Assembly: GCA_029258885.1 (NCBI GenBank)
Contig: JAPDJW010000002.1
Coordinates: 320,001 to 384,000 of the forward strand
Direction: 5' to 3'
DNA: 64,000 bases
Source: Thermoproteota archaeon
GTDB lineage: Archaea; Thermoproteota; Thermoprotei; Thermofilales; B9-G17
Part shown: positions 36,781 to 57,686 of the stretch, one piece after another
Position numbering within the stretch: position 1 is the stretch's first letter
How the letters are laid out: each line of letters opens with the position of its first letter
Position numbers and translations under genes: made by a program
Notes under the pieces: generated by a model
Databases searched by the model: none
What the model saw: only the letters and a program-made list of their open reading frames with translations
What the model was told of the DNA's origin: nothing

Positions 36781-36834
36781 TTCGCCATAACTTTTAGGCT
36801 AAACTTAATTTTCTCTATTTTCTATTTTTTATTT

Positions 36835-39537: not shown

Positions 39538-39564
39538 TAGCAGGATACTAGGAGCAATATTTTC

Positions 39565-39891
39565 TTATTCAACAGGAGTGCCTGGCGGGACTTCACTATC
39601 GGTTGTTAGGAGAACCGGTTTACCGTCAGCAACTGCCGCTAAAAGCATACCGTGGGACACTATCCCCCTAATCACTTTAGGCTTAAGGTTAGTCACCACA
39701 ACTATATTCTTGCCAATTAATTCCTCAGGCTTATAGTATTCAGCTATACCGGCGACAAGCTGTCTAGTTTCAGCGCCTAAATCCACCTCAATTCTAAGTA
39801 ACTTAGATGTTCCCGGTATTCTCTCAGCAGAAACCACTTTACCAACTTTAAGCTCCACCTTTTTAAACTCGTCAAAGGATATATAGCTCAT
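39565..39891 (-). CDS. tRNA-binding OB-fold protein (Trbp111 / MetRS C-terminal domain)
   Basis: FDEFKKVELKVGKV, RQLVAGI, VTNLKPKVIRGIVSHGMLLA. Confidence 0.92.
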   Translation of the reverse strand: MSYISFDEFKKVELKVGKVVSAERIPGTSKLLRIEVDLGAETRQLVAGIAEYYKPEELIGKNIVVVTNLKPKVIRGIVSHGMLLAAVADGKPVLLTTDSEVPPGTPVE

Positions 39892-39987
39892 CCAATCACC
39901 ATAGAAAATAATGTCCAGGTTATACCCTTAAAACTTTAATCATATTCTTCGCCATAAACGAAGCCTTAACTGAGGCTGTTAATTACG

Positions 39988-40854: not shown

Positions 40855-41316
40855 TATGAAGGGAATGAAGTTTATTAATTTTCTCCAAATTCACATCAAT
40901 ATACGTTCCTATCCTAACGTAGGAGACTAGGGGAAATACGAATTTAAGTTTCCCTTCAAACACCTTAAATACTATATGACCACTTTTCTCTAAGATGAGG
41001 TCCATCCACCTAACGTGTAGCCTAGGAGGACGCATAATTGAATTAACGGTTAAAAGCCTTAGCGAAAATGTTTTCCTGATAGTAGTGGCGGTGTGATAAT
41101 ATTCATAGCCTTAAGAGCTAGAAGAAAGGCTCATCCCTCACTGCCACCTCCTTATCTTCCTAAAGTATATAATATTCTCTTCTCTGAAAAGATAATTTAT
41201 TTTTATATCAGCTCCCTTATTTTCTAAAGGCAATTAACGTATTTATTAAGGTGTAAATCAATTAGTGTAGAAAACATCTAGGGAAAGATATCTAATACAT
41301 TTGGAGGTGCTAAGCT

Positions 41317-42324
41317 ATTGCAGACTATGACCTAGAGATAAGCAAGATAGAGAAATTTGTACAGGAGAATAGGCCAGAAAAAGTATTAATTCAAGCCTCC
41401 GATGGGCTAAAACAGTATCTCCATGATGTTGTGGATACTTTGGAAGGCCTCGGAGTTGAAGCCATACTATATCAGGGACATACCTGGGGCGGATGCGATA
41501 TAGCGTTACATGAAGCTAGAGTATTGGGCATAAAACACATAATTCACGTAGGTCACCACGGCCCCGTAAGAGTAAAAATACCAGACGACATCAAAGTACT
41601 TTTCATACCAGCCTTCTCCAACCTAAGCGTTGAAAAATGCGTCTCTAACGCCATTCAACCTCTATCCGGATACAGGAAAATCGGTCTACTCACATCAATC
41701 CAGCACTACAGGGAGCTGAATAAAGCTAAATCCATACTAGAGGGGGAGGGATTCACAGTAGAAATAGGTTGCAGCAAAAGCATGCCTAGAGGCTTAGTTA
41801 TAGGATGCGACTTAACCACAGCATTAAGTATAAGGGATGAAGTTGAGGCATACCTAGTTATCTCCGGTGGAGTATTCCATCCCTTAGGCGTAGCTATAGC
41901 AACAGAAAAGCCCGTAATAAGGGCAGATCCCTATACGGGTAAAGCAGAGAATATAGCACGAGAGGCTGAGAAGGTTATCAGGCTTAGATTATCCAGCATA
42001 GTTAAGGCAATTGACGCGGAAAACTTCGCTATACTCGTATCAACTAAGCCAGGCCAATACCTCCTATCGAAGGCTATTGAAATCAAAAAGAGGCTAACTG
42101 ATAATGGTAAGAAAGCCTCCATTCTACTGCTCAACGATATAGACCCACTGCAGCTGGAGAACTTCCCTCAATTCGAAGCCTACATTAACACAGCGTGCCC
42201 ACGTGTCCCAATAGATGACTACCAGCTATTCCGCAAGCCGATAATAAACCTTCATGAGGTAGAGTATATCATAAGGGAGAAAATTGAAGATTACATAGGC
42301 TATAAATCCATAAAATACCCCTAG
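41317..42324 (+). CDS. dph2: Diphthamide biosynthesis protein Dph2; the frame extends 38 codons upstream of the listed GTG to an ATT
   Basis: TWGGCD, HVGH, IGCD and ACPRVPIDD motifs. Upstream in-frame YDLEISKIEKF...VLIQASDGLK matches the conserved Dph2 N-terminus. GGAGGTG lies 7 nt before ATT 41317. Confidence 0.9.
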   Translation: MADYDLEISKIEKFVQENRPEKVLIQASDGLKQYLHDVVDTLEGLGVEAILYQGHTWGGCDIALHEARVLGIKHIIHVGHHGPVRVKIPDDIKVLFIPAFSNLSVEKCVSNAIQPLSGYRKIGLLTSIQHYRELNKAKSILEGEGFTVEIGCSKSMPRGLVIGCDLTTALSIRDEVEAYLVISGGVFHPLGVAIATEKPVIRADPYTGKAENIAREAEKVIRLRLSSIVKAIDAENFAILVSTKPGQYLLSKAIEIKKRLTDNGKKASILLLNDIDPLQLENFPQFEAYINTACPRVPIDDYQLFRKPIINLHEVEYIIREKIEDYIGYKSIKYP

Positions 42325-42430
42325 ATATTTGAATAAATCCACAGCCTATAGGCTCTCGCCTATTCTTCTGGATAGCTGTTACCGTTTAACGAGGGAATTT
42401 AGAGTTCGAACTACATGTATGATAGATTAG

Positions 42431-42835
42431 CTACAGCCAAAGCCTAGTTATCTCTTTTATTTTATCGTATTCTTTATCTTCTGAGGCTATTCTCGTAATA
42501 TTGTGTAGGAGCATAGCTGCTGTATGTAAGGCATCCGAGGGTTTAATCTTATACTTCTGGATTATTTCAACGGATTTCTTATACTCCGGTTCACCTAGGG
42601 GTAATATTTCAACAAAGGGCAGGACTATCGTATCTATAAAATCCGTTGTTACATCATACGGGACTCTATACTTTTTCCTAGAAATATAGATTACTTCATC
42701 TAACACCAAGACGTCAGTATATGCCTTATACTTTGACAGCAGATTTAGATAAAAATCCTCATATATTCTCCTTATGCTCGGCGTCTTTACGGCGTTTAAG
42801 TATACCAGTAAGTTTGCATTCACAAAAATTTTCAT
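42431..42835 (-). CDS. vapC: VapC PIN-domain toxin
   Basis: IFVNANLL, VLDEV, SDALHTA and SEDKEYDKI motifs. Confidence 0.88.
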   Translation of the reverse strand: MKIFVNANLLVYLNAVKTPSIRRIYEDFYLNLLSKYKAYTDVLVLDEVIYISRKKYRVPYDVTTDFIDTIVLPFVEILPLGEPEYKKSVEIIQKYKIKPSDALHTAAMLLHNITRIASEDKEYDKIKEITRLWL

Positions 42836-43134
42836 TCTTCAAATTCCTCCTCTAAGTATACTGCAGTTAGATCCCCAGGTTTAGGCTCAACTATCTCTGA
42901 AATTCCTCTTATCCTCTCTGCATGCTTCTTAAGGGCTTCTCTAAGCTTTTTCTCATCAAATTTTCTAACAGGCTTCAAGAGAATGCCATCTCTAATCTCA
43001 ACTATAACTTCATCTCCCTCCTCTATGCCAACAGCCTCCCTCACCGCCTTAGGAAGGATAATATAGCCTTTCTTACCGACTTTAAGCTTAAGAGTCAAAC
43101 CTGATCCACCTACAGTTAAACTAGGTTTAACCAA
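42832..43134 (-). CDS. AbrB/MazE-type antitoxin
   Basis: KVGKKGYIILPKAVREAVGIEEGD motif, overlaps the vapC start. Confidence 0.88.
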   Translation of the reverse strand: MVKPSLTVGGSGLTLKLKVGKKGYIILPKAVREAVGIEEGDEVIVEIRDGILLKPVRKFDEKKLREALKKHAERIRGISEIVEPKPGDLTAVYLEEEFEE

Positions 43135-43447
43135 TATAAAAGTTATGCTCTAACGGAGAGTTTCATAATTAATTGTGTTAAGGTAAACTCTTCTATTCAT
43201 TACAGCTTATAGGAAGGCCTTAGAGGAGGAAGTTGAAGACGAGTTAAATAAGCAAGGTTTCAGCATGTAATGAATTATTTGAGTACTGCTATACTGCTTC
43301 TGAAAAGTTCTAGAAAATATTGAAGAAGAGTTAGTGAAAATAAAGGCTAAGTCCTAAGTCATTCTATGGGCTCCACTTAGTATACGCGTTTAAAATATAA
43401 AAATTTTTCTGAGTAAAAATAAATATTAGTAAAATAAGTTAAATTAT

Positions 43448-44461
43448 ATGAAAGAAAGCTTTCTTGAATATTCTCTTAGAGAATCATTAGCCTGCCCTAT
43501 ATGCAGAGGATCTCTTGAAATTAGGAAAGCTACTAGACGTAACAGTGTTATTCAGAGAGCTATTTTATCTTGTGTTTCATGTAGTACCTTGTTTAAAGTT
43601 TACGCGAGAATTCCAGTTCTACTTAAGCCAGGCCAGTACGCTTGCTGGAATCATCCCCATGTAGAGGCTGTTTTCGGCTTTACTCTAGAGTCCTACGAAG
43701 AACTCTTAAGGAAATATGGTGTAGAAGAAGTTAGAAGAAGAGCTTTCAGAATACTCAGAGGAGAGTACTCTCCTCCTAAAGTATTTTTTAAAGAACCTGT
43801 TGATAGAAGACTTTTAGCTATAGGCGGCTGGCGTATTAGAAAATGCTATGTTGAAAGGCATTTAAGAAGAATTAAGGAGCAAACAAAGAGCTCCACGTCT
43901 CTCAGGAGAATGGTCGGTATTGCTAGAGAATATTCTCCATGTAAAATACTTGATATGTGTTCTGGCGGCGGATTCTTTTTAACTTGTCTTATCGAAAAAT
44001 ATAGGGACTTTAAAGAATTCTATAGCTTTGACATAGATTATAAATGTGCTAAAAGAGTTGAAGGAACTTTAACTTATTACAAGCTCTTAGACAGGTCTCT
44101 ACCCATGGTCGCTGACGCTAGAGCTATGCCGTTTAAAGAGAACTACTTTGATATAATTACCAATAATTGTGGCTTTAACCAGATTCTCGGATATACTAAA
44201 GCTGTTAAAGAAGCTTACCGCGTGCTTAAGCCCGGAGGAAAACTTATCGTAAGGGAATTCTACGGTATTACTACGTGGGACAGCGGCTTAACTCGAAGAA
44301 ATCTCGGATTTACTGTAGACGAGCTAGTAGAGCTTTACAGACACTATGACATCTATGTTAATAAAGAATCTTTTATTAAAATTTTAGAAAAAACCGGTTT
44401 TACTATAGAGCTAGTAGAAGATATTAACGATAAATACTACTTACTAGTATGTACAAAGTAG
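43448..44461 (+). CDS. Class I SAM-dependent methyltransferase with a Trm112-like N-terminal Zn-ribbon
   Basis: LACPIC...CVSC...RIPVLL, ILDMCSGGG, DARAMPF and RVLKPGG motifs. Confidence 0.85.
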   Translation: MKESFLEYSLRESLACPICRGSLEIRKATRRNSVIQRAILSCVSCSTLFKVYARIPVLLKPGQYACWNHPHVEAVFGFTLESYEELLRKYGVEEVRRRAFRILRGEYSPPKVFFKEPVDRRLLAIGGWRIRKCYVERHLRRIKEQTKSSTSLRRMVGIAREYSPCKILDMCSGGGFFLTCLIEKYRDFKEFYSFDIDYKCAKRVEGTLTYYKLLDRSLPMVADARAMPFKENYFDIITNNCGFNQILGYTKAVKEAYRVLKPGGKLIVREFYGITTWDSGLTRRNLGFTVDELVELYRHYDIYVNKESFIKILEKTGFTIELVEDINDKYYLLVCTK

Positions 44462-44506
44462 TTAACTCTGCCAGCGAGCTAGTTACTGTAAACGTTGTTT
44501 CGGAGC

Positions 44507-44895
44507 TTAGAGAGTAAGCGGAGCTTTTTCGGTTTTTCCGTCTAGCTCCAGTACTATTACTGTGTCGTAGGGATCTGATGCTAGCCTCGGTCGTCCTTTG
44601 AGAAATACTCTATCCTTTTTCTGCTCTACTTTTAATTCTTCTCCACTCTCCTATAGCTTCTAGTCTTTCTAGTGCTTCTGGCGGAAATGTTCCGTCGGCT
44701 CGAGGCCCTACATTCAAGAGAAGATTACCCTCGTTATTCGCACATGTTACTAGAATCTGTATTAACTGCTTAACAGACTTCCAGTTTCTGTCAGCCTCAA
44801 AGTACCCCCCAGTTATCGTTCATAGTCATACATGTTTCCCAAAGCCTTTGGGCTTAGAGGGCTTTATTACTTGCTCAGGTGTATCAAAGTCTTCT
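44507..44895 (-). pseudogene. Alpha-L-fucosidase (GH29) C-terminal remnant
   Basis: DFDTPEQ, WETCMTMNDNWG(Y) and GNLLLNVGPRADG...RLEAIGEW, then DPYDTVIVLELDG. Several frameshifts and an apparent internal deletion. Confidence 0.85.
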
Positions 44896-44972
44896 AGTCG
44901 CTGGACGCTTTTTCGGACAAAACCCGGACAAAATTTGTCTGATTTTCAAGATAATTTATTTGATGTAACTAT

Positions 44973-45797
44973 CTACTTTCCAGAAATTTTATCAAGAATA
45001 GCTGGCCTAACTATATCTCCGGTGGCCTTTAAAACCCAAATCCCTTCCTCTCTAGCCCTTTCTATCAGATCATGCATAGCAAGCGATACATAGATAACGG
45101 GAATAATAGTCTTCCTCACCTTTTCCGGATAATTAAGCTTAAGCTTTTCGATCTTCCTTATAAGCTCATCGACAAGAGACCTACCAGCTCTAACACTCAC
45201 CTCACCTATAATGCAAACGTCATCGGATACTCCATAAATGTTTATCTCAATTCCGGGAAGTACAAGCCTATACAAATTAACGTCTAGACCAAGCTCCCTA
45301 AGCCTATACTTGACAACCGACAACCCCTCATCCTCAATATCCAACGTAAGCTTCTCAAGCGTACGCTCAACCCTAGACAACCTATTACTGAGACTCTCAA
45401 TCATCCTATTGAAGTCTTCTCTCAGTCTTATCTGCTCTTTCCTCATTTCATTGAATTCCTCTCTTAGCCTTATTTGCTCCTTTCTCATCTCGTTGAAGTC
45501 TTCTCTCAGCTTTATCTGCTCCTTTCTTAGCTCTTCAAAGCTTTTCCTCATTTCATTGAAGTCTTCCCTTAGCTTTATCTGCTCTTTCCTCATCTCCTCA
45601 AAGCTCCTCCATAGCTTTATCTGCTCTTTCCTCATTTCGTTGAATTCTTCCCTTAGCCTTATCTGCTCCTCCATTAGATCGTCTAGTCTCTCAAGTATCT
45701 CTCTCATACCGATGTATCCGGCTACCGCATACCTAAATTCCTTATCCTCCTCAAGTAACCTTAGTATTTTTTCCTTAAGCTGACGCATACCTCCCAA
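44973..45797 (-). CDS. Heptad-repeat coiled-coil protein with a C-terminal PD-(D/E)xK-like domain (DUF3782/paREP-like)
   Basis: LLEEDKEFRYAVAG N-terminus, repeated EQI(R/K)LREEFNEMRK units, EINIYG...IGEVSVR C-terminus. Confidence 0.8.
   Translation of the reverse strand: MGGMRQLKEKILRLLEEDKEFRYAVAGYIGMREILERLDDLMEEQIRLREEFNEMRKEQIKLWRSFEEMRKEQIKLREDFNEMRKSFEELRKEQIKLREDFNEMRKEQIRLREEFNEMRKEQIRLREDFNRMIESLSNRLSRVERTLEKLTLDIEDEGLSVVKYRLRELGLDVNLYRLVLPGIEINIYGVSDDVCIIGEVSVRAGRSLVDELIRKIEKLKLNYPEKVRKTIIPVIYVSLAMHDLIERAREEGIWVLKATGDIVRPAILDKISGK
45390..45680. repeat. Imperfect 42-bp tandem repeats (14-aa unit) inside the coiled-coil gene
   Basis: Recurring CTTATCTGCTC...CTCATTTC(A/G)TTGAA units, about 6 copies. 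Boundaries approximate. Confidence 0.8.
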
Positions 45798-45993
45798 TTA
45801 TAGGTTAAAGAAATTAGTATTTAAAAATATATGTTATTAAAACAGACAAATCTATACCGTACCTAACGATAAGCTTCAGGTTTAAGTAGCTAAAAAGAAT
45901 TATGTTAACAATAATCTATGTTCCTATTAGAGGTAGCATCGGCAGATTTAAATTACACCTAGTGCTTATCTCTCTAAATATAGGGAGTTCTAT

Positions 45994-46779
45994 ATGAAAA
46001 GAATACTTGTAACAAATGACGACGGTATAGGTAGCATAGGATTAAGAATACTATTCAACTCCGTTAGAAGCCTTGGAACAGTATATGTTGTTGCACCAGA
46101 AGGACCTAAAAGCGCCGTGGGATTAAGCCTAACCTTACACAAGCCTTTAAGGGTTCTCCATAGGATAAAGTATGCAGAGAGAGCTTGGGTTGTAAGCGGT
46201 ACTCCATCGGACTGCATACATATAGGAATAGAGAAGATAATAGGCAGAAAACCTGACCTAGTATTATCAGGGATAAACCTAGGGGATAATACAAGCATAC
46301 AGGTTATCCTAGCCTCCGGAACAGTTGGAGCGGCCATGCAGTCGGCAATAATAGGTATACCCTCAATAGCATTCTCAACAGCCATAGATGATCCGGATAG
46401 GCTTGAAAGAAGCAGGGAATACGTTAGAATAATGAGTAGGTTTGTAAGGAGAATAGTTGAATGGGTACTGGAAAACGGCATGCCTGAGGATGTAAAGCTA
46501 CTAAACGTAAACTTCCCGCCAAAGCTAAGCGAGGATACTAAAGCAATGCTGACTAGACCAGCATTAATGAGGTTTAAGGAGAGAATAATCGAGAGAAGAG
46601 ATCCTAGAGGAAGACCATACTACTGGATATATGGAACAGTACTAGATAATCCGCAGCCTGGAACGGATGTATATGCGGTATGGGTAGAAAATAAGATATC
46701 CATTACACCAATATCAATAAATCTACAGGCGGCAAATACAGAATTCTTTAAACCTTTAGAAAAAAGATTAAACGAATAA
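45994..46779 (+). CDS. surE: 5'/3'-nucleotidase SurE
   Basis: ILVTNDDG, VVSGTPSDC, SGINLGDN, SGTVGAAM and LNVNFP motifs. Confidence 0.96.
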   Translation: MKRILVTNDDGIGSIGLRILFNSVRSLGTVYVVAPEGPKSAVGLSLTLHKPLRVLHRIKYAERAWVVSGTPSDCIHIGIEKIIGRKPDLVLSGINLGDNTSIQVILASGTVGAAMQSAIIGIPSIAFSTAIDDPDRLERSREYVRIMSRFVRRIVEWVLENGMPEDVKLLNVNFPPKLSEDTKAMLTRPALMRFKERIIERRDPRGRPYYWIYGTVLDNPQPGTDVYAVWVENKISITPISINLQAANTEFFKPLEKRLNE

Positions 46780-47331
46780 TGACAGTAAAATTTATAATAT
46801 AAAAATCAGATATTTATTCTAAAATAAAGGCAGAAAACAATCGTGTATCTAATATCATCAAAAGTAAGGTATAAATATTGTATTGTTAGAACCGAATAGA
46901 AAATGAAATACTAATTGAATAAAAATAGAGAACTTTTTTCTAATTAAAATTATAAAATTATCCGATATATAATTAACGTATTCATGTCAAATATTTGTTT
47001 CAATAAAATATTGATTAGAATTAACATTAGAAAATTATAGATATTTGCAGTGGAAATGTTTTTGAAATATTCGTTATCGGTGAAAGTCGAAGTTAAAAGG
47101 CCTTAAAACAACGCTTTAGGAGATAGTGTTTTAAAGCTAATTTTGCAGTTTTGCGTCCACAAAACTGCTACAAAAAATATATGAAGTTATATCAAATATT
47201 TTTTCATAGAATGGTCGAAATTAATGTTGTATATTTTATTGAATTTAATATCCTTATAGATTTTTTGGTAACGTTACGTAACGTTATATAACGTTATGCA
47301 TATTAACTTGTAACGGCATACTGTTATTATT

Positions 47332-47430
47332 ATGGCTAGCATTGCAGAGCTGATAAGGAAGGGTGAGGGAGAAACCATAGAGTTTAAGAGAAGCCTAGCC
47401 GAGCTTAGAGAGATAGTTGAGACTAAGTAA
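47332..47430 (+). pseudogene. 5' fragment of a Schlafen/AlbA_2-domain gene cut by the integrated element
   Basis: MASIAELIRKGEGETIEFKRSLAELREIVET continues in frame at 56454 as IVETICAFSNTRGG once the element is removed. Confidence 0.9.
47413..47425 (+). repeat. attL: 13-bp direct repeat ATAGTTGAGACTA
   Basis: Identical copy at 56454-56466. Recombining the two restores the host reading frame. Confidence 0.9.
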
Positions 47431-47484
47431 ACGGATGTGTTGAGATAGCTTTTTATAGAACCGGATGCGAAAACTTAGCTCGTG

Positions 47485-48864
47485 ATGGGGGCTACGAAAT
47501 CTCAGGTTTTAGAGGACTTCCTGAAGCTCTATTCGGATAAGACTAGTACTCCAAAGACGTACAGGTACCTCCTAGAGATATTTTTCAAGATGGCGGGAAC
47601 TACGCCTGACGATTTTGCTGAGATGGTGAAGCAAGATCCCGAGAAAGCAAAGAACTTATGCTACGATGTCCTTCACAGGATGCAGGTGGAGAAGGTGAGG
47701 GATAAGCAGAAACTGAGGGGAGGGGGATATTCCCCGAAAACTATAACGAACGCTATGGTGGCATTAAACCAGTTTCTCAGCTTCCTCAACGCTGGGTTCA
47801 GGGTCAAGGTGAGGGGGATTAAGCCTATTCCTGTAAATCTAGACTACATCCCCTCCATCGAAGAGATCGAGATATTAATCTCTAAGGCTAGGTTCGAGGT
47901 TAAGCCTATAATAGCATTGATAGCTTTCTCTGGAATGAGAATAGGAGACATCTTAAAGCTGAGGTATAAGAATATAGCTGGCGACATAGAATACATTCCC
48001 GAGGAGAAAAAGTATAGGGCTAAGAGGCTGCCTGCTAAGATCATAGTATTTCAGGAAAAGACTGGGAGACCGTACGTTACCTTCATGGGCTCGAAGTGTT
48101 GTGGAATTCTCACTACTTACCTCAACGACCTCGTTGTAAGGAGGGGGAGACCTCTCGAGGACGAGGATAAGCTGTTCAAGCTAACCTACCAAGCTTTCAT
48201 TATGGCCTTTATGAGGCTCGTCAAGAGGTGTAGCATTCAAGTTCCTTCGATCAAGAGGCTCCGTCCATACTCTCTTAGGAAATACTTTAGGCTACACGTC
48301 TCTAAGCTAGGCGAGGAGACGGCTGAGTATTTGATGGGGCATGTCCGGGGGATAAATTCACTTACCGCTACCTACACGGGGCTACGTGACTTAGATCGCC
48401 GCGCGGTAGAGGAGCTCAGGAAGAGGTTTGCTGAAATACTCCCTGAACTTGAAGGAACTGCGTTCATGTTCAAGGAGGAAGTAGAGAAGCTACATCGGCA
48501 ACAGCAGGAAGAGCTGGAGAGGCTACGAAGGGAGGTCGAGTACTTGAGGGAGGCTCATAACAAGCTCCTCAAAATTCTCACGTGGGATGTCTTAGAGCCC
48601 CACGACCTGAAGAAGATATTCAGCTTCGCCTACGAGATAGCTGGCAAGAGGCTCCGTGAAACGTACTTGAAAGAGGACGAGGAACGGGTGAAAAGGGATT
48701 TTGAGGATGCGGCTAGGGTCGTAGCTAGGAGTATTGAAACTATGAAGGAGAGGAAATACGTTATTGCAAGAGGGGAAGCAGATCTCCTCAACTACCTCGA
48801 AATAGGCTACGAGCTAGTGAAGGAGCTGTCTGGAAACAGGTTTCTGCTCAGGAGACCAAAGTAG
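47485..48864 (+). CDS. Tyrosine integrase (intact, with C-terminal coiled-coil)
   Basis: FSGMRIGDIL (R), QEKT (K), YSLRKYFR, YLMGH and ATY catalytic set. Located 59 nt from attL. Confidence 0.92.
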   Translation: MGATKSQVLEDFLKLYSDKTSTPKTYRYLLEIFFKMAGTTPDDFAEMVKQDPEKAKNLCYDVLHRMQVEKVRDKQKLRGGGYSPKTITNAMVALNQFLSFLNAGFRVKVRGIKPIPVNLDYIPSIEEIEILISKARFEVKPIIALIAFSGMRIGDILKLRYKNIAGDIEYIPEEKKYRAKRLPAKIIVFQEKTGRPYVTFMGSKCCGILTTYLNDLVVRRGRPLEDEDKLFKLTYQAFIMAFMRLVKRCSIQVPSIKRLRPYSLRKYFRLHVSKLGEETAEYLMGHVRGINSLTATYTGLRDLDRRAVEELRKRFAEILPELEGTAFMFKEEVEKLHRQQQEELERLRREVEYLREAHNKLLKILTWDVLEPHDLKKIFSFAYEIAGKRLRETYLKEDEERVKRDFEDAARVVARSIETMKERKYVIARGEADLLNYLEIGYELVKELSGNRFLLRRPK

Positions 48865-48942
48865 CTGGCTAGCAGAACCGAGACAAACATAAGCGTCAGG
48901 CATTCCAGAAAATGGAATTTTGGAGGATTTGAGCTAAGTAAA

Positions 48943-49393
48943 ATGCGAATTCACGAGGCATTAAAGGAAACAGCTCATGGAGAGGAAGGGGATGTATGCT
49001 TTCAGGATCCCCGTCTCCGGATCGAGGGATCTCCCCGACGTCTTTGCAGTAGACAGCTACGGGAAAGCCGTCTACGCCTTCGAAATAAAATCTACCACGA
49101 GGCGGGTGGTGAAGGTGAAGAGGAAGCAGATCACTAGACTGCTCCGCTTCTGCAAAGCTTTCGAGAGGATAGCTAAGACTGCCGCCCTCCTCGCAGTGTA
49201 CAGCTACAGGCTGAGGCGCTGGTTCGTCTGGGAGGTAGACAAGTCGGCTCCATACTACTCTGAGGCGGTGATAGTGCTAGATTTCCAGAACTCGGGGGCA
49301 GTAGTGAGGAAAGGCGATTTTTTAAATCGGGGGATCTATAGCGAAATGTTCACGAAGCTCCTGAATCCCAAGCGTGGGAGTTTTCAGCGGTAA
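48943..49393 (+). CDS. Hjc-like Holliday junction resolvase with a +1 frameshift near its start
   Basis: FRIPVSGS..LPDVFAV...FEIKST core in ORF 48977-49393. The N-terminal MRIHEAL is in another frame and joins RKQLMERKG if A48964 is skipped. Confidence 0.75.
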
Positions 49394-49458
49394 TACAGAC
49401 AGAATTCTAAAACTTGGTTTTCGGCTGAAAATTCCCCTTCCTTCAAATCCTCTAAAAC

Positions 49459-49740
49459 TCAGCGGCGGTAGTAGTATTCCTCGCTCTCGGGTTGCCTCCC
49501 GAAGATAGCTGAGAGAACTACCCAGAGGAAGAGGAAGATGAACAGGTACGGGAGCCCGGTGTAGACGAAGGAGTCGACGATGCTCTTTATGCTGTTGGCG
49601 CTCGCCTCCCAGCGGGTTCCGCTGACGTTGAAGAGCGGGAGGATCTGCGTGTCGATGACGTTGTAGTACACCATGTCGATGAGGTAGTAGAGCACTGAAA
49701 ACATCAGCACGACGAACATTAGGACGGCGATGATCCTCAC
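49459..49740 (-). CDS. Two-helix hydrophobic protein, putative minor capsid/structural protein
   Basis: Two long hydrophobic segments joined by NVSGTRWEASAN, GGTGA RBS 5 nt before GTG, similar to the 88-aa protein. Confidence 0.6.
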   Translation of the reverse strand: MRIIAVLMFVVLMFSVLYYLIDMVYYNVIDTQILPLFNVSGTRWEASANSIKSIVDSFVYTGLPYLFIFLFLWVVLSAIFGRQPESEEYYYRR

Positions 49741-49749
49741 CTAAATCAC

Positions 49750-52623
49750 CTATTTGCCCCTCTTCTTCCTCTTCTTCCTCCTCGAAGCTTTCTTCAGCCT
49801 CCTCGCTTCGCTCCTTATGATCTTCTCGGGAGTCAGCCACTTGCTGAGCCACTTGTCCCACTTCTTCAGCAGTGAGAAGCTGAAAACTGCTCCCCCTCTC
49901 CTGAGCTTGAAGGGCGGAGGGGGTAGCTTGAACGATGGAGGAGGCTCGAAGTCTCCTAAGTCTCCAACAGAGATTAGCTCCTCTACTTGAGCTTCTACTT
50001 CTCCCACCACCTCGTCTATTTCAGCAAACACGTTAGTTTCGAGTTCAGTTTTCTGAAGCGAGGTGAGGCTAACTTTAGGAGTTGGGAAAAAGGCGTATTC
50101 CTCTGCGCTCACGCCTCTAACAGCAGGTACGGGTCTCCTAACTTTCTTCTTCCTCTTCTTCAGCTCTAGCTCTAGCTTAGGTATGGAGGAAATAACATCC
50201 CTAAAACTAATTTCGGGTATTTCAGCGCTTATCTCAACCTGAATAGGCGGTATTTGTAGAGATAGAGCCTCCTTTGCCTCCCCCACTTCTACGCCTGATA
50301 TGGAGGGCAGAGCTACGACTGGAATTAAAGTTAGTTCTTTGGCCGCCTTAACCGATATAGGCTTTGCGCTAACTGGGAGGGGGAAGGTTACTTCCTTACC
50401 TAGCTCTGCGTACTTTGAGACAGGAAGTCCTCCAGTTAGCATTTGGGCGTATTCGTCTAGCTGTGCTAACGCCCACTTAGGTTTGAATGCAGTTTTGAAC
50501 GTAGTCTTCACTCCCTCCTCAGCTCCCAAGCCAGCAATCATAGTTTTAAATTCGAAGCTGTATCCTGGCAGAACTCCTTTCTCGAACTTAATCACATATC
50601 TAACGTCCTTTACCGCATCGTCTACATACTCTAAGAATCTGAGGGCGTCGACAGGCGTACCTCCTACCTTCCCCACTCCGGTGTAAATACCCTTTCCTCC
50701 CTCCCTCACGTACCTGTAGAAGCTCTTCCAAAAGTCTTCGCCCATCCAGACCTCTCCCACAGCGAGACACTTGCCGCTAAAGTACTTGTCGTAGGCTAGT
50801 TGAAGCTCAAGTGGAGAATATATCTTTTGAGCGGAAGCAAATTCTTCCGTTGGGAGACGAGACACCCTCCACAGCTTAACTTCTCCCTTGACGATGTCGT
50901 CTATTTCTCCACCTAACTTGATCACTCCCTCGTTGTCTTTTAAGAACTGCTTGTACACGTCTTCGGCTATGTCGTCCCAGTAGGTATATATTCTCCCCTC
51001 TGCTTCGACTAATATGTCTCCCCCTCCTGAGAGCACCCTACCCTTCATCCTAACCTCAGACGGGAACTCTCCGTAATATTTTGTCTCCCTGAGCAGTTTA
51101 TCTGTAATCTCGCCAACTTTCTCCTTAACGAAGGAAAAAACGCTCCTCCTACCGACAAAATAGCTTCCAATCCCCGGGAGCTCTCCCGTTTCAACGTAGT
51201 ACTGGTAGGTACTTGGGAAGACTTTTTTAGCGATTTTTCCTCCAACTTCTTTAGCCTTCCTCACTCCCTTCTCTACCATCGGGATTATTGGGTTCAGGAG
51301 CTCAGCTAGGAGTTCGCCTTGCACGTATTCTCCTAACGCTATTCCGGGAGCCATCCCCGGGTGTTCGACGAATATCGTGCCTAAGTCTAGCGGAACGTTA
51401 TAGCCGAATATAGTTCCCCACGACTCAAAGCTCCTGATAAATCCAGCAGGTATGTTAATGTAGGTGGACACAGGCTTCGGCTCATATCCCGCAAGAACCC
51501 TCGGGAGGTTCCACCAAGTTGCTAACGGAAGAGCAAACGTTAGACCCCATTTTGCTTCACTTCCAAAGGTCTCTCCAATCCAGGCGTCTATGCTTGCTCC
51601 AATGCTTGCTAGTAAACCGCTTATCGTCCTGTCCTGCGTGCTCTCCCGATATTTCTCTTCTAGCCATCGGTTGTATTCGTTTATTTCATTGTTTAAATTG
51701 TTTATGAAATTGTTGAACTCCTCTACCTCCTTATTGAAGGAAGAAGCTATCGCCTCATACTCGCTAACGTGTCTCTGTAGACTGCCAGCGACGTCTTCGT
51801 ACTCGCCCCTTATCTCCCTCATCCTGTTTATTATCCTCCTGTATTCTCTGACGTACTTCTCGTATTTCCTGCCGTATTTTGCGTTTAACTGCCGTAGCCT
51901 CGCTTCATATTCCTCCCTAGTTATCTCTCCGTTCTCGTACATGTCTTTAAGCCTCTCGTATTCATCCACTATAGACATTATCTTCTTCCTGAGAGACATC
52001 GCCTTATTGTATAGCCTCTCGTACTCCTTTCCTAAGCCTTCGAGCCTCTCCTTTTCACGCTTTATATTCTCCTCAAGAGGCTTGAGCTTAAACTCTGTCT
52101 CAGCTTTCTTGCTGACCAGCTCCCCGTACCATTCCATAGCCTTCCTCTTCTTTTCTTCTATCTCCTCAGGCGTAACTGGAGGCTCCTCTACGCCGGAAGG
52201 TATCTCTACTCTACTCCCTCCTCTAATCCTCAGACCCTCTTCCCTATATAAGTCCTCCTCAACCAAATCCTCTATCAAGTCTTCGGGCAGTTCTCCACCA
52301 ATTCCTGCCTCAGTTCCGCCGCCAACTTCACCGGAGCTTGCCTCCTCCTTTCCTCCAAATTGAGGCATCGTAGATGGAACAGGGGGAACGATATCGGACG
52401 GCACCTCGAAGCCCAACATATAGCTAGGAATGAAATCAACCGTAGAAACGTCTCCACTTTCCTTACGTCCTCCCCCGCCTTCCTCAGTCGCAGACGTAGT
52501 TGGATGCACAGTCACTTCTTCGTCTGGAAGGGGAACTTCCTCCTCCTTCCTCTTTTTCTCTTCTTCCTCTTCGCCTGCTCCCGCTGACTCCGCGCCTAAA
52601 GAGAAATATTCTTCGACGGGAAT
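49750..52623 (-). CDS. Large (921 aa from GTG 52515; 957 aa from ATT 52623) acidic/coiled-coil protein with a polybasic C-terminus, putative virion protein
   Basis: Glu/Gly-rich N-terminus, long coiled-coil, weakly hydrophobic middle, C-terminal RRLKKASRRKKRKKRGK. The frame is open up to an ATT preceded by GGTGA. Confidence 0.7.
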   Translation of the reverse strand: MPVEEYFSLGAESAGAGEEEEEKKRKEEEVPLPDEEVTVHPTTSATEEGGGGRKESGDVSTVDFIPSYMLGFEVPSDIVPPVPSTMPQFGGKEEASSGEVGGGTEAGIGGELPEDLIEDLVEEDLYREEGLRIRGGSRVEIPSGVEEPPVTPEEIEEKKRKAMEWYGELVSKKAETEFKLKPLEENIKREKERLEGLGKEYERLYNKAMSLRKKIMSIVDEYERLKDMYENGEITREEYEARLRQLNAKYGRKYEKYVREYRRIINRMREIRGEYEDVAGSLQRHVSEYEAIASSFNKEVEEFNNFINNLNNEINEYNRWLEEKYRESTQDRTISGLLASIGASIDAWIGETFGSEAKWGLTFALPLATWWNLPRVLAGYEPKPVSTYINIPAGFIRSFESWGTIFGYNVPLDLGTIFVEHPGMAPGIALGEYVQGELLAELLNPIIPMVEKGVRKAKEVGGKIAKKVFPSTYQYYVETGELPGIGSYFVGRRSVFSFVKEKVGEITDKLLRETKYYGEFPSEVRMKGRVLSGGGDILVEAEGRIYTYWDDIAEDVYKQFLKDNEGVIKLGGEIDDIVKGEVKLWRVSRLPTEEFASAQKIYSPLELQLAYDKYFSGKCLAVGEVWMGEDFWKSFYRYVREGGKGIYTGVGKVGGTPVDALRFLEYVDDAVKDVRYVIKFEKGVLPGYSFEFKTMIAGLGAEEGVKTTFKTAFKPKWALAQLDEYAQMLTGGLPVSKYAELGKEVTFPLPVSAKPISVKAAKELTLIPVVALPSISGVEVGEAKEALSLQIPPIQVEISAEIPEISFRDVISSIPKLELELKKRKKKVRRPVPAVRGVSAEEYAFFPTPKVSLTSLQKTELETNVFAEIDEVVGEVEAQVEELISVGDLGDFEPPPSFKLPPPPFKLRRGGAVFSFSLLKKWDKWLSKWLTPEKIIRSEARRLKKASRRKKRKKRGK

Positions 52624-52724
52624 CTACCTCACCCCCACAGGAGCTTCAAAAACACCACCTTAAATTGGAGAGAATTGTTCAAGGGAAAAAATGAAGTTAA
52701 CTCTTCCTGCTGGCTTACTCTTAC

Positions 52725-52991
52725 TTACTCCCTGCCTCCTCCGCCGGCGAGACCCATTAGAAGCCTAAGCATGAATGCCGCAATGATCACCATGAAGGCT
52801 ACGCCTAACAGCGTGAATCCCGTTTGAACGGCGGTTACGAAGTTGTTGTAGGGAGTAGCCCAGTTAGTCCCCGTCAGGTTCATCGAGCTCTCGACTTGTG
52901 CGGCGATGTAGAGGCCGATGACTACTGTACATATTAGTACTACGGCGGCAATCGCTATACCGGCAAGCCCAACCTGACCCTTCCTGTTCAT
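52725..52991 (-). CDS. Two-helix hydrophobic protein, putative major capsid protein (spindle/bacilliform type)
   Basis: 88 aa, MNRKG|Q basic N-terminus, two hydrophobic helices flanking NLTGTNW with a sequon, strong GAGGTG RBS. Confidence 0.65.
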   Translation of the reverse strand: MNRKGQVGLAGIAIAAVVLICTVVIGLYIAAQVESSMNLTGTNWATPYNNFVTAVQTGFTLLGVAFMVIIAAFMLRLLMGLAGGGGRE

Positions 52992-53325
52992 ACGCTCACA
53001 CCTCTATCTAATGAAAGAGGAAGAAGTATATCAGGGAAATTACATTCACGGCCTATTAGGAGCTAGCTTTGCGGATGCATAACGTTGATTATAATTATAT
53101 TATATTGCTGGGAGGGGTTTGTTATACAACGATCCAACGCCGCCCGCTTCCCCGTCGCCACAGCGGAAGAGGCGCAGAGCACAGAGGGGGAAGGTTTAGC
53201 GGAGAGGTCAGTCATCATCGTAGACTCAGGGAGGGGGTCGAAGTCATCGGTATGATACATCAAATCCCCTACGTTGCGGCGAAAGTGAAATTATCCCTTC
53301 CTCATCGGAGGAAATCCGCCGAGTT

Positions 53326-53697
53326 CTAGAACTCCATCAGCCTCTTAAACTCGTTAGCTGGCAGAATTATAAAATCTTTACCAGCATATTCTGGCGGTAG
53401 ATACTTAAGTACTTCTGCATACTTGTACTTACCTTTCTTTGTAACGAGCTTCGCCCTCACCCTCCAGACTTTCATCGAGCCATCCTTCACTTTCAGCCCA
53501 ATAGGCTTCTTTATCCACTCCTTAACTTCCACTAAAATCTGGTCAGTCCCCTTAACCTCCTTCACGGTGGCATTTACCGCTTTGAACTTATCCTCAAGCA
53601 CTTCATAGACCTCTCTATCCATTATCAGAACTACGGGATCATGTGTGTAACTTATGTAACGTGTGTAACGTTGAAGTAAATGTTTTCTATTTCTCAT
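53326..53697 (-). CDS. Hypothetical protein of the element
   Basis: 123-aa Lys-rich ORF with GGAGG RBS. C-terminal YLPPEYAGKDFII is reminiscent of swapped-hairpin (AbrB-like) proteins. Confidence 0.6.
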   Translation of the reverse strand: MRNRKHLLQRYTRYISYTHDPVVLIMDREVYEVLEDKFKAVNATVKEVKGTDQILVEVKEWIKKPIGLKVKDGSMKVWRVRAKLVTKKGKYKYAEVLKYLPPEYAGKDFIILPANEFKRLMEF

Positions 53698-53742
53698 CTT
53701 ATTTCCTCCTTCAAGCCATATCTACGTCCAAATCAGCCCAAT

Positions 53743-54316
53743 AAATTTGCATTAATTTGTATTGCAAATTTTCTATTTGCATTAATTTGTATTGCAAATT
53801 TTCTTATCTCTTTTTACGTATTTCAGCTCCGATTCTAGCTGGTATGGAAATTTGCAAATTTGCATAGAGGTAGTAGTTAAAGTCCTTCCACGCCGCTGGC
53901 GGTGCGGTAGCGGCCTCACAGTTAAATGAATAATATACTCTCCTCCCTGCTTCTCAATTTTGAAGCGGCTACCTCTGTATTTCTCTAAGAACTCTTTTAT
54001 ATCGGGCTTACTAAATCCAAATTCACTCTCCAGAAACTGGACGAACTCCTTTCCGCTAATTCTCCCTCCCCGCTCTCTAATAAACGCTTCAACCTCTTCA
54101 GCCACAACCTCATAAACAAGATCGTTAAAGGACACCTTTTCTCCCGTTATGGGGTCTACGTATTCTCCTCCAGCCATCTCCCTAACTTTACTTATATCTC
54201 TATGCAAATTTGCAAATTTCCTAATCAGCCCTTTAATGTACTGAATAACGCCTGATACGTCATCTAAATTTGCATTACAACCAAATGCGAATTTTTCTTT
54301 CTCTTTTTGCAAATTG
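53743..54316. repeat. Cluster of AAATTTGCA/TGCAAATTT dyads including a 30-bp tandem duplication (53745-53804)
   Basis: Motifs at 53743, 53763, 53775, 53793, 53848-53864, 54203-54219, 54266 and 54286. Confidence 0.8.
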
Positions 54317-55581
54317 CTCGGAAACTCAGAGACTAGTTTATATGCGGGTCTGTATATGTTTCCCCTCCTACCTCCTCTACCCTCTTTAATCAGGTACCCT
54401 TTATCCACTAAGTCTTCCAGCTTACCGTAGATCGTTCTCCTGCTGTATCCCAGCTTCTCTCCTACAACGTCGAAGACCTGGTTGACGGTAACTCCTTCTC
54501 CGTTTTCGGAACATAAATCTAGGACGACTTGAAGTATGTATCTTTCCTGTTTGGTTAGCTCGAAAATTGAGTGCTCCAGTGCATTATAGCCCAGCCTTAA
54601 AGCAATAGCCAAATCCACCAAATCCGCTCTATCCCTTAAACTCTCTGGCTTCTGGAAGTATCTGCAAATAGCTATTTGCTTTATTAATCCTCCAAGTTTC
54701 AGCGGATACCTCCTGCTCTCAGATCTTTCAGAGGGGATCAAATCCTTCAACTCAGTTGCATAGGGAATTATTGGGTCAACGTCAACCGTAGCTATAATCC
54801 TGAAAGCCTCCTGCCAAACCTTCAGCTCCTTTGCGTCGTGTGGGAGTACATCTTTCTTTCCCTCTAAATGTTTGAGCCACACCTCGATGACCTCCTCTGT
54901 GAATTTGGGGTCGCTAGACAGTTCAATTCTCCACATCCCGCTTTTGAGAGCTGAGCTAATTCTACGTACGTTCGTTGTGGTTATTATCCCTTTAACTGGC
55001 ATTTTCACGACGGCTGTCTCCATCTGCTTTGTTTTCGGGTTCATGTAGGCGTACTCTGAGATGATTCCTCCATCGCTAGTCCTCATCAGTCTGAACTGTC
55101 TCTCCATCTCTCCTACAACTAAATCTATATCAGGGATATACAGTATATCTGCCTCCTTGAGTTCCTCTGAATATCTCATCGCGGCTGGCGTAAAGTAGCC
55201 TCTCTCTATACACTTCACAGCTTTCTTCAAGAGGAACAGAGACATCCTAACCATGCTGTCCTTTCCAGTTCCAGGCTCACCCACAACCTGGATTAAGGTG
55301 ACATAGCCCCTCTTGACAGCCATCAAGAGTATTGGAAGTAATCTCTTGTTGGCCTCCTCTCCTAATATGAAGCGTGGTTTATTCAGCTCTGGAAGTACAA
55401 AGCCATAGCTAAATATTTTTCCCAACTTATAGAAGAAGTCTGGAGACTTAAGCAACTCCTTCGCCTCAGATTCGAGTTCCTTCGCCTCAGATTCGAGTTC
55501 ATACTCAGTCATAAATTCTTCTAGGTCTCCCTCTAACTCCTTACTCTCCTCGCCGTCCTCTACAACCTTACCTCTCTTCAA
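53782..55581 (-). CDS. P-loop NTPase / putative replicative helicase with C-terminal winged-helix domains
   Basis: GEEANKRLL pre-motif, Walker A GEPGTGKD, Walker B-like LYIPD, sensor TTTN, wHTH YSRRTIYGKLEDLVDKGYL. Confidence 0.75.
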   Translation of the reverse strand: MKRGKVVEDGEESKELEGDLEEFMTEYELESEAKELESEAKELLKSPDFFYKLGKIFSYGFVLPELNKPRFILGEEANKRLLPILLMAVKRGYVTLIQVVGEPGTGKDSMVRMSLFLLKKAVKCIERGYFTPAAMRYSEELKEADILYIPDIDLVVGEMERQFRLMRTSDGGIISEYAYMNPKTKQMETAVVKMPVKGIITTTNVRRISSALKSGMWRIELSSDPKFTEEVIEVWLKHLEGKKDVLPHDAKELKVWQEAFRIIATVDVDPIIPYATELKDLIPSERSESRRYPLKLGGLIKQIAICRYFQKPESLRDRADLVDLAIALRLGYNALEHSIFELTKQERYILQVVLDLCSENGEGVTVNQVFDVVGEKLGYSRRTIYGKLEDLVDKGYLIKEGRGGRRGNIYRPAYKLVSEFPSNLQKEKEKFAFGCNANLDDVSGVIQYIKGLIRKFANLHRDISKVREMAGGEYVDPITGEKVSFNDLVYEVVAEEVEAFIRERGGRISGKEFVQFLESEFGFSKPDIKEFLEKYRGSRFKIEKQGGEYIIHLTVRPLPHRQRRGRTLTTTSMQICKFPYQLESELKYVKRDKKICNTN

Positions 55582-55888
55582 TCAAATTCACCTCCACAGA
55601 GAACTTCTGACGGAGAAATCGGACGACCTCCACTCCCCTCTCAGTTAAATAATTATAGGTGGCAGGAACCCTTAAGCTCGGATGCATTCTCCGAACCCTA
55701 AACACAAGCCCAGCTTTCTCTAACTGCTTTAGGTAATAGCTTACTTCCCGTCCGCCGAGGAGATTACTTATCTCGCAGGTGTAGAGCGGCTTGTTGGTGA
55801 AGTATAGACAGAGCAGTATCTCTAAGTTCCGCTTACAAAAAACTTTATTAACACGCTCAGCGAACTTCTTTATAAAGTAAGTATTCAT
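55568..55888 (-). CDS. Winged-HTH DNA-binding protein
   Basis: NLEILLCL...EISNLL...YYLKQLEKAGLV...YLTERG. GGAGGTGA RBS. Confidence 0.8.
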   Translation of the reverse strand: MNTYFIKKFAERVNKVFCKRNLEILLCLYFTNKPLYTCEISNLLGGREVSYYLKQLEKAGLVFRVRRMHPSLRVPATYNYLTERGVEVVRFLRQKFSVEVNLIEER

Positions 55889-55967
55889 ACTATCACCTCC
55901 TGAAGTTCTTCTTTCAATTGGTTAGAATTTGTTCAAATACGGGAAAATTGAAACTTAAACTGCCTTC

Positions 55968-56237
55968 TTATTCCCCTTCCTCACCTTCGCCTTGATTTCC
56001 AGCCACCCTTTTCGCAAGTTCCTCGAACTTCAAGATGGAAATTTTGATGTTCCTCTCCTTCGGCTCACATCTAATGATGGCGAGGTCTCCCTTTTCAAGG
56101 TTTAGAGCTTTCGCTACCTCCATAGGAATTGTAACAGCGTAGCAGGTTCGCAAATACAATATCCGCCTGACGTGTAGCACTTTACCACCTTTAACACAGC
56201 CTTTCAATTGGAATAAATCTCGACTTAACTTCCTCAT
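55968..56237 (-). CDS. AbrB/MazE-like swapped-hairpin DNA-binding protein
   Basis: YAVTIPMEVAKALNLEKGD motif. Confidence 0.8.
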   Translation of the reverse strand: MRKLSRDLFQLKGCVKGGKVLHVRRILYLRTCYAVTIPMEVAKALNLEKGDLAIIRCEPKERNIKISILKFEELAKRVAGNQGEGEEGE

Positions 56238-56250
56238 AACTTAGTTATTA

Positions 56251-56274
56251 GTTTACTAAACGGGATATATAAAA
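56251..56274 (-). promoter_or_regulatory. Putative promoter of the element's regulatory/replication operon with a palindromic operator
   Basis: TTTTATATA about 26 nt upstream of the AbrB-like ATG, with GTTTA(G/C)TAAAC (56251-56261) between them. Confidence 0.45.
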
Positions 56275-56453
56275 TTAGCGGTGGATGGCAAAAGTGAAAT
56301 TGTATTTAAATTTTCTGGTTCGTGAATTTCCCCTCCGTTTCTCTGGATATTGGATGTTTCCCTCGTTGAAAGCGGCTTGGATCAGCTTTATTTCTGCCGC
56401 GTCCTGTTCTTGTTTCTGGTTAATTCTAAAACTAGCTTTACGTTTTTGAACGC

Positions 56454-56466
56454 ATAGTTGAGACTA
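56454..56466 (+). repeat. attR: 13-bp direct repeat ATAGTTGAGACTA
   Basis: Identical to 47413-47425. Confidence 0.9.
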
Positions 56467-57686
56467 TATGTGCATTTTCTAATACACGTGGAGGGATAGT
56501 TCTTGTTGGAGTTAACGATAAGGGTGAAGTCGTAGGAGTCGATGTTAGCAGGAGTACTATAGAGAATCTGGTTTCCAGGATAGCTAGGGAGACAAACCCT
56601 AGGATATATCCTGAGGTGGAGGTTGTAGAGTTTAACGGCAGAAAAGTTATTGTTATAAGGGTTTCCGAATGAACGGATAAGCCAGTATTTGCCTTCGGCG
56701 TAGCCTACAAGAGGGTTGGGAAAAGCAATCTTAAAATGGATAGGGATGAGATACTTAGGCTTTTCAGAGAGTCCCGAAGGATAAGCTTTGAAGACGAGAA
56801 AATATGTACTATAAGTGAGCTCGACTACGGGAAAATTAAAAGCTTTATTGAGAGAGCTTCCGCGTATAGAAGAGCTGTGCTACCCAGCGACCCGAAATCG
56901 GTTCTAGATAACCTCGGCATGTTGCTAAATGATCACATTAATATCGCTGGTCTCCTAGCTTTCGGCAGAAATCCTCAGAAGTATTTTCCGTATGCGTGCA
57001 TAAAGATAGGGAAGTTTGTATCGGGGAGTATTATTTTTGAAAAGGAAATTAAGGGAGATATTATCGAACAGATCGAAAGGGCATATGCTGAGGTATTGAG
57101 TCTTATAAAACGAGAAATTAAGGTTAAAGGATTAAAAAGAGAGGAGGTCTACGAGTATCCGCCTAAGGCTTTGAGGGAAGCCGTAGTTAACGCTGTAGCG
57201 CACAGGGATTACTCGATTAAATCACCTATCTATATAAGGATATACGAGGACAGGATAGAGTTTGAAAATCCCGGAGGATTAATTGATTTAACAGTTGAAG
57301 ACTTAAAGAAGCCTCATAAATCAATACTAAGGAACCCTAAGATAGCGGAAGTACTATATTACTTGGGCTTCATAGAGAAGTGGGGCATAGGTACACTAAT
57401 GATTATTAAAGAGTGTATTTTAAACGGAAACGGCGAGCCAGTATTCGAGTCCAATGGTAGCTTTAAACTTACAATCTTCTCAAGGTACTTTAGCTCATTA
57501 GATCCTGTGGAGCGGAAAATAATTGATTACATTGGGGAGAAGGGCGTAGTTGAAAGAAGGGAAATTCAGGAGCATCTTAAGCTAGCTGAAAGCACGGTTA
57601 GGAAATACCTAATTAAGCTTAGGCTAAGAGGCTTAATAGTTAAAATTGGAAGGGGAAAGAGGACGGTTTATAAGCTTGCGCTTTAA
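56454..57686 (+). pseudogene. 3' part of a Schlafen/AlbA_2 + HATPase-like (RecG_C-type) + wHTH gene, with an in-frame TGA at 56670
   Basis: ICAFSNTRGGIVLVGVNDKG, AYKRVGKS, then ORF 56736-57686 with REAVVNAVAHRDY, ENPGG, RNPKIA, IEKWGIG and a terminal wHTH. Confidence 0.88.

Follow-up and report, generated by a model that had tools for sequence, protein, structure and literature searches.

Site-specific integration of a 9-kb element into the 5'-proximal part of a Schlafen-family gene in a Thermoprotei archaeon

Results

Insertion of the element at a 13-bp core

We analyzed a 64,000-nt stretch of contig JAPDJW010000002.1 (assembly GCA_029258885.1; positions 320,001 to 384,000, hereafter the window) from a Thermoproteota archaeon, in which a 9,041-bp mobile element interrupts a gene of the Schlafen/AlbA_2 family. 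The element has two defined junctions, a natural empty counterpart and a specific target site, and its insertion abolishes the reading frame of the host gene. The best reading of the locus is an ordinary site-specific integration with an unusual, gene-disrupting target: an integrative plasmid- or virus-like element would have entered, by means of its own tyrosine integrase, a 13-bp core within a 437-codon pSlfn-HisKinase(GHKL)-HTH gene of a hydrothermal-vent Thermoprotei archaeon. We consider this explanation as a whole, namely insertion by the element's own integrase, a null allele and a tolerated target, to be highly probable.

The element is bounded by an exact 13-bp direct repeat, ATAGTTGAGACTA, at 47413-47425 and 56454-56466. 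The 2.1-Mb genome has no further exact copy, and the exact core, with one mismatch allowed, is expected 0.16 times per window. The two attachment (att) cores enclose 9,028 bp (47426..56453; 9,041 bp with one core copy), and the GC content is 43-52% within the element vs. 36-39% in the flanks. The features of the attachment sites and of the split gene are as follows.

47413..47425, + strand: attL core, ATAGTTGAGACTA
56454..56466, + strand: attR core, ATAGTTGAGACTA
47332..47430, + strand: 5' stub of the split pSlfn gene; 31 native codons followed by a Lys codon and TAA supplied by the element; reads MASIAELIRKGEGETIEFKRSLAELREIVETK and then stop
56454..57686, + strand: 3' part of the split gene; codons 28-437, with the remaining SLFN_AlbA_2 domain, HATPase_c_4 (GHKL/"HisKinase") and a C-terminal winged helix-turn-helix (wHTH)
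56670..56672, + strand: in-frame TGA, codon 100 of the reconstructed gene
47269..47296, + strand: three palindromic octamers TAACGTTA just upstream of the target gene, read directly

The target gene begins with the ATG at 47332. Joining 47332-47412 to 56454-57686 gives 1,314 nt, equal to 437 codons and a stop, and the joined product reads ...EGETIEFKRSLAELREIVETICAFSNTRGG... across the junction. Its alignment with P0054, an intact ortholog of 437 aa from metagenomes, shows 85.8% identity and no gaps. A preliminary description of this DNA had presented the join as a single 437-codon frame; the length and the join hold, whereas the frame is not open in this genome, being closed by TGA at codon 100. 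Its placement of the site inside a Schlafen/AlbA_2-domain gene, not a tRNA gene, was borne out, and no tRNA gene was found in the window. The reconstructed attB holds the dyad ATAGT-TGAG-ACTAT, as had been described; the core forms part of this dyad and occupies codons 28-32 of the 437, and the identical dyad sequence is present in natural empty sites (contigs L020 and L146). Near-matches to the core at two positions, 42882 and 42993, fall inside a VapB/MazE-like antitoxin gene and were set aside as unrelated to the element.

Natural empty sites of two kinds provided evidence of insertion. A 32-kb ENA contig (L146) is 99% identical to window positions 34217-47425 and then runs directly into 56454-57147. 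The Schlafen gene on this contig is uninterrupted and has a single copy of the core, and the upstream genes are the same as those in the window (NnrD/YjeF, XerA, Dph2, VapBC, DUF8196 and SurE), which makes it a syntenic empty site. When this contig is aligned to the window by BLASTN, the 13-nt core is exactly the stretch covered by both segments. The identical core and the same 13-nt segment overlap were found in L020, L021 and L022, which carry an 86% ortholog in another genomic context and are also empty; in L020 the ortholog is surrounded by VapBC, HicAB and CcdA toxin-antitoxin pairs. The intact orthologs for which the preliminary description had proposed a search are thus available, in P0054 as a complete protein and in L146 and L020-L022 as uninterrupted genes with one core.

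The occupied junctions were recovered repeatedly. One 9,753-nt contig of the source run (X1) spans both of them, ENA, JGI and Logan assemblies made independently share the attL and attR junctions, and contigs from three independent assemblies break or begin exactly at the core. In run X2, position 56454 is immediately preceded on one contig by 17 letters from the left flank of the host, i.e., an attB junction, and another contig carries attL. We concluded that the insertion is real and precise and that it duplicates 13 bp. Contig depths are 35.5 for the flank vs. 7.0 for the element in X2, and the coverages given in the contig names of ERZ584659 are 22.5 vs. 3.8; such depths cannot be read as shares of cells and give only a hint that occupied sites are the minority in both samples.

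Site specificity of the integrase

The gene next to attL encodes the integrase.

47482..48864, + strand: tyrosine integrase, 460 aa from GTG or 459 aa from the ATG at 47485

It matches the PHROG integrase family phrog_1 (E 3.6e-20), and also NCBIfam XerA (E 4.7e-13) and Pfam PF00589 (23.3 bits), the latter two under the curated cutoffs; a sequence search against PDB gave no match. Residues R153, K193, R266, H287 and Y298 are invariant across 20 homologs in a 20-sequence alignment. Homology in the catalytic domain, identical att cores bounding the element and a single core in the empty site together identify a tyrosine recombinase, which presumably catalyzes both cleavage of the core and integration. 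The integrase open reading frame (ORF) is whole after integration, with the core at 57-69 nt ahead of its start. Since the attP core would stand upstream of the gene, at about 60 nt, integration is expected to leave the integrase gene unsplit.

Integrases that are 99% identical to this one lie beside the same attL in at least five other assemblies, with different cargo. In L015, a mosaic variant element of 6,273 bp is complete and is flanked by attL and attR identical to those of the window, and L014, L016, L017, L029 and L030 have the same attL beside the integrase gene. The cargo of the variant includes a serine recombinase and a 673-aa helicase-like protein, and the segments it has in common with the element of the window are four: the integrase, an 88-aa protein, a 106-aa wHTH protein and the att-proximal end. 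Empty, 9-kb-occupied and 6.3-kb-occupied sites therefore all occur in nature. The use of one core by two different elements, whose integrases are 99% identical, shows that insertion is site-specific for this integrase.

The same attL was also observed in a 44-kb metagenome contig (L150, 9929-13776). There the integrase is truncated at residue 357 (window position 48525) and is followed by a pyruvate-oxidoreductase gene, in a tail that has no match in the genome of the window. This is probably a chimeric contig or a strain-specific rearrangement or remnant, and it was left uninterpreted.

Targets of more distant integrase relatives

To relate the target to the integrase family, the N-terminal 45 residues of the Schlafen protein were compared by tBLASTN with 84 integrase-homolog loci. 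The AlbA_2 stub was found only beside the near-identical (99%) integrases, and beside none of the homologs of ≤55% identity among these loci. The idea that homologous integrases sit at the same codon holds for the 99%-identical clade, and those of 55% identity or below are located elsewhere, which goes partly against the earlier interpretation, since unrelated sites had been named as its refutation. For homologs of 25-31% identity, the distance to a tRNA gene (Ser, Pro, Ala, His, Arg, Lys and others) is 150-250 nt. A 35% homolog (L151) has a 17-bp att repeat as its boundary; this site is intergenic and lies 73 nt upstream of the integrase gene. Two other homologs, L018 (41%) and L152 (33%), adjoin the 5' ends of RFC and carbamoyltransferase genes, and no recognizable att site was found for either integrase. 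We concluded that the Schlafen target is not a property of the wider integrase family, because distant homologs sit beside tRNA genes or in intergenic DNA. The earlier suggestion that the element preferentially inserts into, and switches off, such a gene stands as far as the insertion is site-specific and inactivating; across the integrase family such a preference is not supported.

Another of these homologs (L019, 55%) has a 12-bp perfect inverted repeat, GTACATAGTTAA-GAATAT-TTAACTATGTAC, at 720-760, 71 nt upstream of the integrase gene and with a resolvase-like gene on its far side. The half-site ATAGTT is common to this repeat and the target core and stands at the same distance ahead of the integrase gene; the spacer is different. 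The repeat would fit a role of ATAGT and ACTAT as core-type binding arms, and the site looks like the intact attP of an episomal relative. A 12-bp AT-rich repeat at L038 is intergenic and possibly due to chance, and it was not used as evidence. On the contig of the 35% homolog (L151, 4096-5919), genes for Roadblock/LC7 proteins and an Arf-like small GTPase were noticed, and these point to an Asgard-like host of this homolog.

The integrase had no relative in a pattern scan of the GTDB genome set, and two scans of IMG/VR viral contigs, one with a 25-mer from the attL/attP side and one with the integrase alignment, gave nothing. A search of 120 genomes of the class returned the window's own integrase copy only. 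Within the target gene family, the exact core is present in the target allele and the 86% ortholog only; homologs of ≤60% amino acid identity have 2-5 mismatches. Among 401 genomes of the phylum searched with the intact ortholog, 20 have homologs, and in these 20 genomes no homolog has an interruption at codons 28-32. Where an alignment begins around residue 27-31, the match is a distant homolog within an ORF of 438-487 aa, the one in genome G422 with an internal TAG.

Inactivation and decay of the target gene

The product of the joined gene belongs to the pSlfn-HisKinase-HTH class. Pfam SLFN_AlbA_2 (PF04326, E 7e-18 on a 72-aa piece) and HATPase_c_4 (PF13749, E 1.5e-19) are followed by a C-terminus matching the HTH_24, DeoR and FaeA families, so that a motif-bearing SLFN/AlbA_2 domain is fused to a GHKL/HATPase_c_4 domain and a helix-turn-helix (HTH). 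With a share of 19.2%, this architecture ranks second in frequency among pSlfns, whose catalytic motif has been defined as E-x4-(E/D)-x-K (PMC13056530). Direct sequence comparison matches the target protein weakly to SLFN8 and SLFN12 chains and better to the uncharacterized protein 3lmm.

The catalytic motif E12-x4-E17-x-K19 (EGETIEFK, residues 12-19 of the joined protein) lies upstream of the cut and is left on a 32-aa stub, and the 3' part lacks an in-frame start codon in the interval from the TAG at 56433 to the core. The insertion parts the motif from the rest of the protein, and the allele is therefore null. Integration has cut the host gene into the motif-bearing stub and the startless 3' part, and the split gene has also gained a nonsense codon (Arg100 to TGA).

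Codon 100 encodes Arg in the other assembled alleles, interrupted or empty (P0053, P0055, P0056 and L146). Contigs of runs X2 and X3 have A at 56670, giving AGA. The T is kept in run X5, which belongs to a different study, and for that reason the TGA variant is probably real and not a sequencing error. The 17 letters before the core on the X5 contig with TGA match neither end of the element; this allele may be at an empty site or beside a third element. The split gene in the genome of the window is a decaying pseudogene, not a poised switch.

Decay of this kind is not confined to the interrupted copy. The genome of the window has four further copies of the family, two of them intact (contigs C4 and C5). 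The two paralogs on contig C6 (L153; 6975-8228, - strand, and 14879-15487, + strand) are pseudogenes that lie among housekeeping genes without any element; frameshifts spread one of them over three frames, and the other has lost a large internal segment. The gene family is multi-copy and decays readily in this lineage, and a tolerated insertion is therefore the simplest reading.

The octamers TAACGTTA upstream of the target gene also precede the 86% ortholog in L020 (9942-9969) as the same triple repeat, though the surrounding genes differ, and the DNA similarity between the window and L020 begins at 47269. The octamers may be an operator or promoter element, and the triple repeat may serve as the operator of a cassette that is carried from one gene context to another.

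Discussion

Alternative explanations

We infer that the target is tolerated since the multi-copy family is dispensable here, and that it was not chosen to disarm immunity. The opposite explanation is an adaptive knock-out, in which the integrase evolved to hit the nuclease-coding 5' end and integration disarms a tRNase-based defense. Several observations agree with it: the cut separates the catalytic motif from its domain and leaves a remainder that cannot start, two different elements use the same target, some bacterial Schlafen fusions protect against phages (PMC13056530), and PADLOC matches the SLFN+GHKL module to its pAgo model over the Schlafen-ATPase part. The PADLOC matches of the target are at the domain level only, however, and comprise this pAgo model, Argonaute-associated proteins and Csa3/CasR-type HTH. 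In E. coli, protection was conferred by DUF262 and Ig-like fusions only and by none of the tested HisKinase fusions (PMC13056530). The neighbors of the target are NnrD/YjeF, XerA, Dph2, VapBC, methyltransferases, SurE and a peptidase S9, i.e., housekeeping genes and VapBC; among those scanned, PADLOC detected no known defense system, and by a criterion of about 10 kb the locus lies outside a defense island. Moreover, integration leaves the two intact paralogs in place, so that the family is not removed, the two other paralogs decayed without an element, and the homologous integrases target tRNA genes or intergenic DNA. We consider an adaptive knock-out unlikely. The idea of the preliminary description that the target is a defense gene thus found no support in the tested HisKinase fusions or in the gene neighborhood. 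Similarly doubtful is the extended form of the argument, in which the integrase of a family of small archaeal integrative elements would be tuned to the 13-bp dyad in the catalytic 5' end of a Schlafen-type tRNase gene, so that integration would be an anti-defense act and excision would re-arm the host.

The second alternative is a reversible switch (active lysogeny), in which regulated excision and re-integration toggle the Schlafen gene within a lineage, as the preliminary description had proposed. Precise excision would indeed regenerate an attB identical to the natural empty sites, and metagenome X2 has empty and occupied junctions of the same allele. Separate lineages explain the coexistence of empty and occupied sites equally well. 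In this genome, the TGA at codon 100 would remain after excision, which would therefore restore the junction but not the gene, contrary to the earlier expectation that the frame would be restored. Source-run contigs show neither an attP/circle junction nor a precise-excision path, and no excisionase was recognizable among the element proteins in Pfam, NCBIfam and PHROG searches. Neither a circular attP junction nor regulated excision was seen. We regard a switch as improbable, and more so than the adaptive knock-out. No circle (attP) joint was present among the contigs of four runs and no precise-excision joint among those of the source run; only contigs were covered, and absence from them says little.

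An artifact, either a chimeric assembly or a chance match of the repeat, is next to impossible: the genome is a draft of 26 contigs, probably from a small metagenome run, but assembly error is excluded by the recurrence of the same junctions in the independent ENA, JGI and Logan assemblies and agrees poorly with their coverage by the single 9,753-nt contig, and the rarity of the core and the gapless recovery of a conserved protein by the join speak against chance.

Some points weigh against the best reading. Firstly, no circular attP junction or excision product of the element was recovered, which bears on whether it is currently active. Secondly, an 85-nt contig of the source run joins 47286 to 56975 (47252-47286 / 56975-57004) through a linker of 20 other letters, CGTTAATTTCAATAAAATAT, at a depth of 6.6 vs. 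12.9 for the element contig, and our model leaves it unexplained. This contig could represent either a fold-back chimera or a variant from which the element and the Schlafen domain are deleted. Thirdly, sequence data by themselves would not separate a tolerated insertion from an adaptive knock-out. As read by eye and not by a tool, the linker CGTTAATTTCAATAAAATAT is close to the reverse complement of about 47231-47250.

Comparison with known systems

Integration into protein-coding genes is known in archaea. Among the integrated mobile genetic elements (iMGEs) of Thaumarchaeota, 39 of 68 are in tRNA genes and 14 of 68 in protein-coding genes, all of the latter 3'-distal, and the att repeats have a median length of 17 bp (Krupovic et al., 2019, PMC6563490). 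The element described here is similar to them in its tyrosine integrase, its short att site (13 bp), the intact integrase gene beside attL and the confirmation of a protein-coding target by comparison with empty sites. Whereas the documented archaeal cases are at the 3' end and spare the gene, the site here is 5'-proximal, no replacement coding sequence is supplied and the gene is cleanly destroyed. It also differs from the SSV-type ("suicidal") archaeal integrases, whose attP lies inside the integrase gene and which are split on integration; here the integrase is whole. The site is a new attB, used by a clade of archaeal integrases known only from metagenomes, and it is unusual in being 5'-proximal, destructive and in a Schlafen-family target.

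Prophages that split genes as switches include Listeria phi10403S in comK (PMC7397523) and Staphylococcus aureus phiSa3int in hlb (PMC6597384). As in those systems, a site-specific insertion into an ORF inactivates the gene and precise excision would restore the junction. Regulated excision has been demonstrated for the two prophages; the present host is an archaeon, and the split gene in this genome has an additional nonsense codon. Prophages of Streptococcus pyogenes integrate into CRISPR repeats (bioRxiv 10.1101/2020.10.09.333658), where attB lies in an immunity locus and immunity is altered. That case concerns a proven immune system and a repeat array, unlike the single gene with putative immune function considered here. 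The target protein is like the pSlfn HisKinase-HTH proteins in its SLFN_AlbA_2 domain with E-x4-E-x-K, GHKL/HATPase_c_4 and C-terminal HTH, and unlike the pSlfns with proven defense activity, which are Enterobacterales DUF262 or Ig-like fusions; here an archaeal HisKinase-HTH protein without adjoining defense genes is concerned (PMC13056530).

At this site, nature provides empty alleles, occupied ones and ones occupied by a different element. Together, the integrase, attP, attB and the intact allele form a concrete system in which the activity of an archaeal pSlfn-HisKinase-HTH protein against mobile elements can be tested, as well as whether elements gain from inserting into a pSlfn gene. If the anti-defense or the switch reading were true, the element would provide the first case in archaea of either an immunity knock-out through integration or active lysogeny. 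If the target gene has no such role, the site is simply a new attB for a poorly known clade of archaeal integrases.

Other genes of the element and minor observations

Besides the integrase, the following genes were annotated in the element.

48977..49393, + strand: Hjc-like Holliday-junction resolvase homolog (Pfam PF01870, E 2.6e-12; PHROG, E 1.8e-14)
49459..49740, - strand: 93-aa hydrophobic protein, no family match
49750..52515, - strand: 921-aa protein with coiled-coil region, weak coiled-coil-type matches only
52725..52991, - strand: 88-aa hydrophobic protein, about 92% nucleotide identity with the 6.3-kb variant
53782..55581, - strand: 599-aa protein with winged-helix region (PHROG replication-initiation families, E 9e-5 and 1e-3; Pfam Penicillinase_R wHTH, E 3e-4)
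55568..55888, - strand: 106-aa ArsR-like wHTH protein, 98.5% nucleotide identity with the variant element
55968..56237, - strand: 89-aa AbrB/MazE-fold protein (Pfam PF04014, E 2.2e-5)

The 599-aa protein is a putative replication protein. The 921-aa protein is absent from the 6.3-kb variant element, which of the two small hydrophobic proteins keeps the 88-aa one only. Both the 93-aa and the 88-aa protein have the pattern N-[LV]-[TS]-G-T-x-W-x4-N (NVSGTRWEASAN and NLTGTNWATPYN); BLASTP between them gave no alignment and lends no support to paralogy.

A canonical XerA-type tyrosine recombinase gene lies at 39988-40854 on the - strand, about 6.5 kb upstream (Pfam Phage_integrase, E 5e-42). Its presence in the syntenic empty-site contig as well shows that it belongs to the host rather than to the element.

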